The position numbers were made by a program, and so were the translations under genes. A stretch of 34,126 nt of DNA from Squatina squatina (Eukaryota): the NCBI GenBank assembly GCA_031763465.1, contig JARFOE010000009.1, forward strand, positions 1 through 34,126, in the 5' to 3' direction. Below, piece after piece: positions 27,356 to 28,234 of the stretch (position 1 is the first letter of the stretch; each line of letters begins with the position of its first letter). Below the pieces are notes generated by a model. It saw nothing but the letters and a program-made list of their open reading frames with translations, was not told the DNA's origin and searched no databases.

Positions 27356-27488
27356 GAAGAAGCTCGACTTGTTTGCGAACGTGGTCCATGTCAATAGTTT
27401 GCCAGGTTACCCCACACGGCACAACAACCTGGACCTGGTGATCATCCGTGAGCAGACTGAGGGCGAGTACAGCTCACTGGAGTATGAG
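27356..27488 (+). CDS. IDH3B: NAD-dependent isocitrate dehydrogenase subunit beta exon
   Basis: cacag|G AAG AAG...GAG|gtaagg; [44 protein letters not shown] is beta-type. Confidence 0.88.
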
Positions 27489-27589
27489 GTAAGGCCTCCC
27501 CCAGACCCCCGGGCACTGGCCCGGCCTCCCCAGTCCCCAGTTCACCGGGCCCCAGCTCCAGCTCTGACTCTCCCTTTCTCTTGGGTTAG

Positions 27590-28234
27590 AGTGCTCGTGG
27601 AGTCATTGAGTGTCTGAAGATCATCACCAGAGAGAAATCTCGGCGAATCGCCAAGTTTGCTTTTGACTACGCCACGAAGAAAGGTCGCTCGAAGGTCACA
27701 GCTGTGCACAAGGCCAACATCATGAAGCTGGCCGACGGCCTCTTCCTCCAGTGCTGCCGGGAGGTGGCGTCGGGCTTCCCGGAGGTCAAGTTCACCGATG
27801 TCATCGTGGACAATGCCACCATGCAGCTGGTCGTCCGGCCTGAGCAGTTCGACGCTATGCTGATGCCCAACCTGTACGGGGTGGTGATCAACAATATCTG
27901 TGCCGGCCTGGTGGGGGGCCCGGGGCTGGTGCCGGGCGCCAGCATCGGCCGCAACTGCGCCGTCTTCCAGTCGGCCATCCGCAACACGGCCGTGAGCCTG
28001 GCCAACAGGAACGTCGCCAACCCCACCGCCATGCTGCTCGCCGGCTGCCTGATGCTTGACCACCTCAAGCTGCATGACCACGCCACGGTCATCCGGAACG
28101 CCGTTATGAAGGCCATGACAGAAGAGAAGATCCACACGCCGGACATTGGAGGCTCCGCGTCCACGACCGAAGTGGTCAACTATGTCATAAGCCAAATCCA
28201 GCAAACGCTCAAGGTGCCCGTGCAAGGCCTCTAA
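27590..28234 (+). CDS. IDH3 exon: beta-like to about 27725, then intronless gamma-like sequence to the stop
   Basis: After a 101-bp intron, ttag|[36 protein letters not shown] (beta), then [38 protein letters not shown] and HTPDIGG (gamma). Confidence 0.8.

Follow-up and report, generated by a model that had tools for sequence, protein, structure and literature searches.

A reading frame in the genome of the shark Squatina squatina (assembly GCA_031763465.1, contig JARFOE010000009.1) begins with spliced IDH3B sequence and ends in intronless, gamma-type sequence, which raises the question of whether the animal carries a chimeric IDH3 subunit or whether the frame was created on the way from sample to assembly. 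The stretch of DNA analysed, hereafter the window, is 34,126 nucleotides long and corresponds to one whole scaffold, made up of 25 pieces separated by N runs of 100 or 10, in an assembly of 1.52 Gb and 1.15 million contigs. Our analysis indicates that the chimera is very probably an artefact that the animal itself does not carry. Behind it would stand two real genes, namely an ordinary spliced IDH3B and an intronless, likely retroposed IDH3G paralogue common to sharks.

Two subunit types in a single frame

The IDH3B/gamma-type frame is present in the sequence as given, at 27356..28234, and the whole feature lies inside a single gap-free piece (27262-28249) that ends 15 bases past the stop codon. 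Its parts are as follows:

27262..27355, plus strand: 3' end of an IDH3B intron, with the AG acceptor at 27354-27355
27356..27488, plus strand: IDH3B exon A, 133 bp, grouping with IDH3B
27489..27589, plus strand: IDH3B GT-AG intron, 101 bp, GTAAGG...AG, read from the sequence
27590..27723, plus strand: IDH3B exon B, SARGV...KANIM, with as much as 98% identity to shark IDH3B
27704..27724, plus strand: inferred join, a 21-base word spanning the V-H-K-A-N-I-M codons, potentially common to both genes and located by diagnostic codons
27724..28234, plus strand: intronless 3' half of 169 codons plus stop, assigned by its clade to a shark IDH3G-like paralogue (likely retrogene)

Exon A, which we take to be exon 6 of IDH3B in human numbering, is also covered by a sequencing run over 27354-27504, with one differing letter. 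Both exons match shark IDH3B at 97-98% identity, the 101-bp intron and the exon edges are where vertebrate IDH3B has them, and the 89 residues through KANIM are identical at 86-87 positions to the IDH3B of three shark species. The 3' part of the intron is matched, from 27551 onwards, by a contig of a related species. A sequence-only reading of the window had already noted spliced beta exons with a 101-bp GT-AG intron reaching up to KANIM, and both the coordinates and the match to IDH3B confirm it. In vertebrate IDH3B, however, an intron directly follows KANIM, whereas the frame of the window, open from 27590, runs without stop or intron until the TAA at 28232-28234.

The 169 residues of the 3' half contain an Iso_dh domain (PF00180, E 5.2e-51) and are 46-50% identical to IDH3B, 60-64% to ordinary IDH3G and 64-82% to the shark IDH3G-like paralogue. 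All 18 sites that separate shark IDH3B from this paralogue before the switch are of beta type; after it, 35 of 38 are of paralogue type, none is beta and three are neither. The last beta-diagnostic codon is found at 27701-27703 and the first paralogue-diagnostic codon at 27731-27733, with one single switch between them. Separate trees for the two halves, proposed in the earlier reading, assigned them to different subunits: the N-terminal half fell in the IDH3B clade (support 100/97), while the C-terminal half grouped with gamma, not beta, in a clade with seven shark paralogues (support 100/100). The outcome named there as fatal to a chimeric frame, both halves grouping with the same subunit, is therefore itself refuted. 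The rise in third-position GC remarked on at the switch was also borne out, with values going from 54/82 codons (0.66) to 143/162 (0.88; Fisher p = 5.6e-5).

An IDH3G-like paralogue in sharks

The description of the 3' half as gamma-type and intronless holds, although it derives from a distinct paralogue and not from ordinary IDH3G: at sites diagnostic between the two, it is of paralogue type in 18 of 20. An intact, divergent, intronless IDH3G-like gene, whose existence the sequence-only reading had deduced from the window, was found in ten further shark species, where it has its full length and both ends are of gamma type. These were covered by seven clusters that stood out in a profile search by a clear score gap (699 vs 569 bits), and the seven cluster representatives are all full-length, with a gamma-type N half, and non-chimeric. 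The ten species presumably span both squalomorph and galeomorph sharks. Among the 120 matches listed there were no members from rays or chimaeras, an absence of little weight, since the profile was built from the seven clusters and only 8,000 candidates were scored.

The closest relatives of the 3' half are proteins named 'gamma' or 'gamma-like' from Heptranchias (XP_067835651.1, 82% identity) and Heterodontus (XP_067870030.1, 79%), compared with 60-70% for most ordinary IDH3G, and it is their orthologue within that single clade (100/100). Others are XP_038631545.1 from Scyliorhinus canicula and GCC40510.1 from Chiloscyllium punctatum, so that the paralogue is already in the databases under generic names. 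These proteins and the 3' half have Q268, I271, A275 and L278 in common; they differ in that the former are full-length, with a gamma-type N half of their own, whereas in the window only the part after KANIM is present, attached to exons of IDH3B. In Stegostoma tigrinum the paralogue is seemingly merged into a 1,075-residue PLEKHG4B-like model (XP_059497804.1), and so hidden by annotation. Database models of IDH3G/IDH3B from Ranitomeya imitator and Chaetura show exon blocks duplicated internally, which are probably assembly or annotation errors. A metagenome search returned only distant relatives (43-52% identity) among the best 80 matches listed, and no description of the paralogue or of the chimera was found in a literature search in which subscription journals were thinly covered.

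Spliced IDH3G, as seen on contigs of other species, has exon edges near positions equivalent to 27723, 27827 and 28068, and the window lacks an intron at all three. Moreover, the Chiloscyllium punctatum paralogue has 402 codons on a contig of 2,211 bases. The absent introns and this compact gene point to the paralogue probably being an old retrogene, with intron loss shown for the 3' half and likely for the rest; at such an age, a poly(A) remnant or target-site duplication would no longer be preserved. The spliced parent persists beside the paralogue: Heptranchias has both the paralogue and an ordinary, multi-isoform IDH3G, and a spliced IDH3G exon is present in the S. squatina genome itself (contig C340358).

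A comparable case may exist in mammals, as we take the mouse gene 4933405O20Rik to be an IDH3 gamma-2 retrogene, an identity for which the literature consulted on this gene, consisting of gene-list mentions only, gave no confirmation. The mouse gene would resemble the shark paralogue in being an intronless, divergent and conserved second IDH3G, and the origin in sharks would be an independent one. An out-of-X origin of the paralogue is conceivable; a search of PMC13100897 gave nothing on IDH3.

The join between the two halves

Between the two explanations offered in the earlier reading, the evidence supports an assembly mis-join at a shared word; a real chimeric subunit found no support. We consider it likely that the frame arose when the assembler mis-joined IDH3B and the second shark IDH3G gene. 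Both genes encode VHKANIM, at the protein level, and the switch interval falls in this shared stretch. The switch also coincides with the end of the IDH3B exon, which lies within the M codon of KANIM, at AT/GT. In agreement with this exon end, 11 of 14 retrieved proteins of IDH3B type are read-throughs of genomic sequence that, immediately past KANIM, either end or lose the normal protein. The contig of the related species (two sequencing runs of one sample, depth 2) tracks the window over the 174 bases of 27551-27724, differing at 11 of them, before it enters a GT intron with the sequence GTGAGT. Since the donor G of GTGAGT is the G of ATG, both genes can share the 21 bases at 27704-27724, an identity that, at the DNA level, is deduced from protein. 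Short-read assemblers commonly use 21 as their smallest word length.

The course of events would then be as follows. IDH3B exits at AT/GT and the intronless gene continues as ATG AAG, so that about 21 identical bases, donor G included, would be common to both. With thin coverage, the intron branch of IDH3B and the upstream branch of the paralogue were likely lost, leaving a single path through the word, and it was likely the paralogue half that led the scaffolder to put the resulting piece alongside HOMEZ and other genes.

That false joins occur in this assembly is illustrated by bacterial gene fragments, all five of those examined being found at the end of a contig and fused within it to other DNA. 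One of them, on contig C309012 (1374-1643, minus strand), came from the IDH search: it matches a segment of the Savagea serpentis gene for NADP-isocitrate dehydrogenase at 270/270 positions, breaks off mid-gene and is followed by a shark CR1-like repeat. The other four, obtained in two bacterial family searches (2/2 and 2/2), are:

C648739, 1-233
C512441, approximately 733-1139
C318418, approximately 1090-1604
C681521, approximately 553-937

A second fragment also matches Savagea serpentis, at 98.7% over 233 bases. Shark repeats are found in the other part of four of the five contigs, the fifth fragment being joined to AT-rich DNA without a match. The five out of five shows that false joins occur and is not a rate, as a length cut-off probably removed short fragments that were not fused. 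The fused fragments are contamination chimeras, which elsewhere in this genome would look like horizontal transfer.

Further pieces of IDH3 genes were located in the same assembly. Contig C133367 carries the IDH3B exon that precedes exon A, and its end has a 14-base word in common with 27262..27355; the contig of the related species extends 5' of 27266 and there resembles, by eye, the end of C133367. The last IDH3B exon, with its stop codon and an AATAAA motif, is intact on contig C724271. Another match resembles, also by eye, an exon of IDH3 alpha. The pieces reciprocal to the join were looked for as well. Neither the 5' half of the paralogue nor the intron path of IDH3B, searched for with the intron motif of the related species, was found in this very incomplete assembly; a weak match to the paralogue 5' half (E 0.98) was inspected and put down to chance. 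The missing pieces weigh little, given that searches of the S. squatina genome recovered no more than four exons of IDH3B and a single one of IDH3G, and these blanks would look alike if a real replacement had taken place. No second copy of the 21-base word exists in the assembly, where it occurs once, with one other match that has two mismatches. Seven sequencing runs with matching words, none of them listed as RNA, gave no junction-spanning sequence; no run contained half of the words and one yielded nothing. As there is no read or contig of S. squatina across the junction, the join is not directly disproved.

The location of the two genes in other sharks is informative. In two catsharks the paralogue and HOMEZ are on contigs of equal size (133,841,611 and 330,819,199), and IDH3B is on other, larger contigs (277,254,249 and 385,912,898), so that in these species the genes that provide the two halves are on different chromosomes; the equality of contig sizes shows a shared chromosome, not adjacency. 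Heptranchias was uninformative in this respect, with the genes on two small, different scaffolds.

Several other features were noted on the scaffold. They include a HOMEZ-like protein (22151-24189; Pfam Homez), a ZNF219-like gene with C2H2 zinc fingers (25448-27108, minus strand; Pfam C2H2), a tandem array of units of about 55-60 bases that adjoins the IDH piece at 28590-29110 (by eye) and a cerebellin-like first exon (29750-30018). There are also an IRF domain (around 19858-20433, minus strand; Pfam), an hnRNP C-like RRM (around 31755-31997, minus strand; Pfam RRM) and an intact single-exon GPCR of the rhodopsin family, 307 codons long (12686-13609, minus strand; PF00001). About 700 bases of GAG/GAT-rich repeat occupy 24490-25230, where the plus strand reads as an acidic poly-E/D tract. 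The names given to the genes at 19746-32985 are provisional, as is the resemblance of this set to the human 14q11 cluster. A short exon at 21613-22041 (minus strand), without a Pfam match, resembles the coiled-coil N-terminus of BANP-type proteins.

An alternative to the mis-join is that the chimera was made before assembly, in the library or by PCR, either when a part-extended IDH3B fragment annealed to paralogue DNA over the word in common or when two fragments were ligated. This predicts an identical breakpoint, thin coverage lets one chimeric molecule define a contig, and the bacterial-shark fusions could equally be chimeric molecules. Random ligation, however, would not hit an in-frame, homologous position, and template switching between two single-copy genes would generally be rarer than a join in the assembly graph. 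We regard this route as unlikely.

It is improbable, too, that the frame is a real, lineage-specific gene, formed when IDH3B genomic DNA recombined, over the shared VHKANIM word, with the intronless paralogue or a cDNA of it. Such a gene would account for an intact frame whose halves meet, within gap-free sequence, at precisely the homologous codon, and for the absence of both reciprocal pieces from the assembly, and recombination also favours the longest shared word. Nevertheless, none of the seven paralogue clusters of the ten shark species is chimeric, nor is any of the seven chondrichthyan IDH3B proteins in the trees, and the related species takes the intron path. In catsharks the two genes occupy different chromosomes, and in this region their proteins agree at no more than about 56-62%. 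IDH3B has kept its last exon intact, and the assembly demonstrably makes false joins. The product would combine the N-terminal half and clasp of beta with the C-terminal half and ADP loop of gamma type, and could occupy either position in alpha2-beta-gamma.

That a single ordinary gene, a divergent IDH3B or IDH3G whose 3' introns have been lost, merely looks hybrid is hardly credible: the two subunits do share HKANIMKL and much of their fold, but the beta sites fall from 18/18 before the switch to 0/38 after it, third-position GC shifts in step, and the two trees, with the halves in separate, fully supported clades, already refute it.

Predicted properties of the paralogue and significance

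Taking the mis-join as the preferred explanation, the biological interest of the locus moves to the paralogue. Its residues were numbered as in human gamma, with K151 of PDB 5GRE as anchor, and those of the N half were read from the other sharks and not from the window. According to the study on human IDH3G (PMC5241874), citrate is contacted by N78, S91, N93, R97, R128, Y135 and R272, activation is relayed through K151, D190 and Y237, and the contacts with ADP include G275, K276 and I278. As in human IDH3G, all of these citrate and relay residues are kept in the seven full-length paralogues, as are N273, T274 and N285, and T81 is found in six of the seven. With the window included, all eight sequences have the changes E268Q, T271I, G275A and I278L and have lost K276, while seven out of seven ordinary gammas keep the human residues. 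The ADP site of the paralogue thus retains P252, G253, N273, T274 and N285 and is altered at G275, K276 and I278 in eight of eight cases. The paralogue further differs from human IDH3G in N130T/C and in a 3' half without introns.

From these residues, the paralogue is predicted to work in the manner of IDH3 gamma, pairing with alpha as a non-catalytic partner that binds citrate and passes on activation. The difference in its phosphate-binding loop makes an altered response to ADP likely, though the change may be slight, as the K276A substitution had only a mild influence on ADP activation in that study (PMC5241874). The paralogue might also be a germ-line subunit, considering that mouse Idh3b is reported to be needed for spermiogenesis (PMC9478456).

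Were the chimera real, a beta N half together with a retuned gamma-type ADP loop would rewire the allosteric control of the citric acid cycle, and would serve as a natural experiment on which half is responsible for beta being structural and gamma being allosteric. If it is an artefact, as we think, in-frame joins of paralogues inside gap-free contigs of this assembly are not to be trusted without reads. The shark paralogue, for its part, would be a retained retro-duplicate of a housekeeping subunit, and constitutes a natural variant for testing how the activation of IDH3 by ADP can be tuned.
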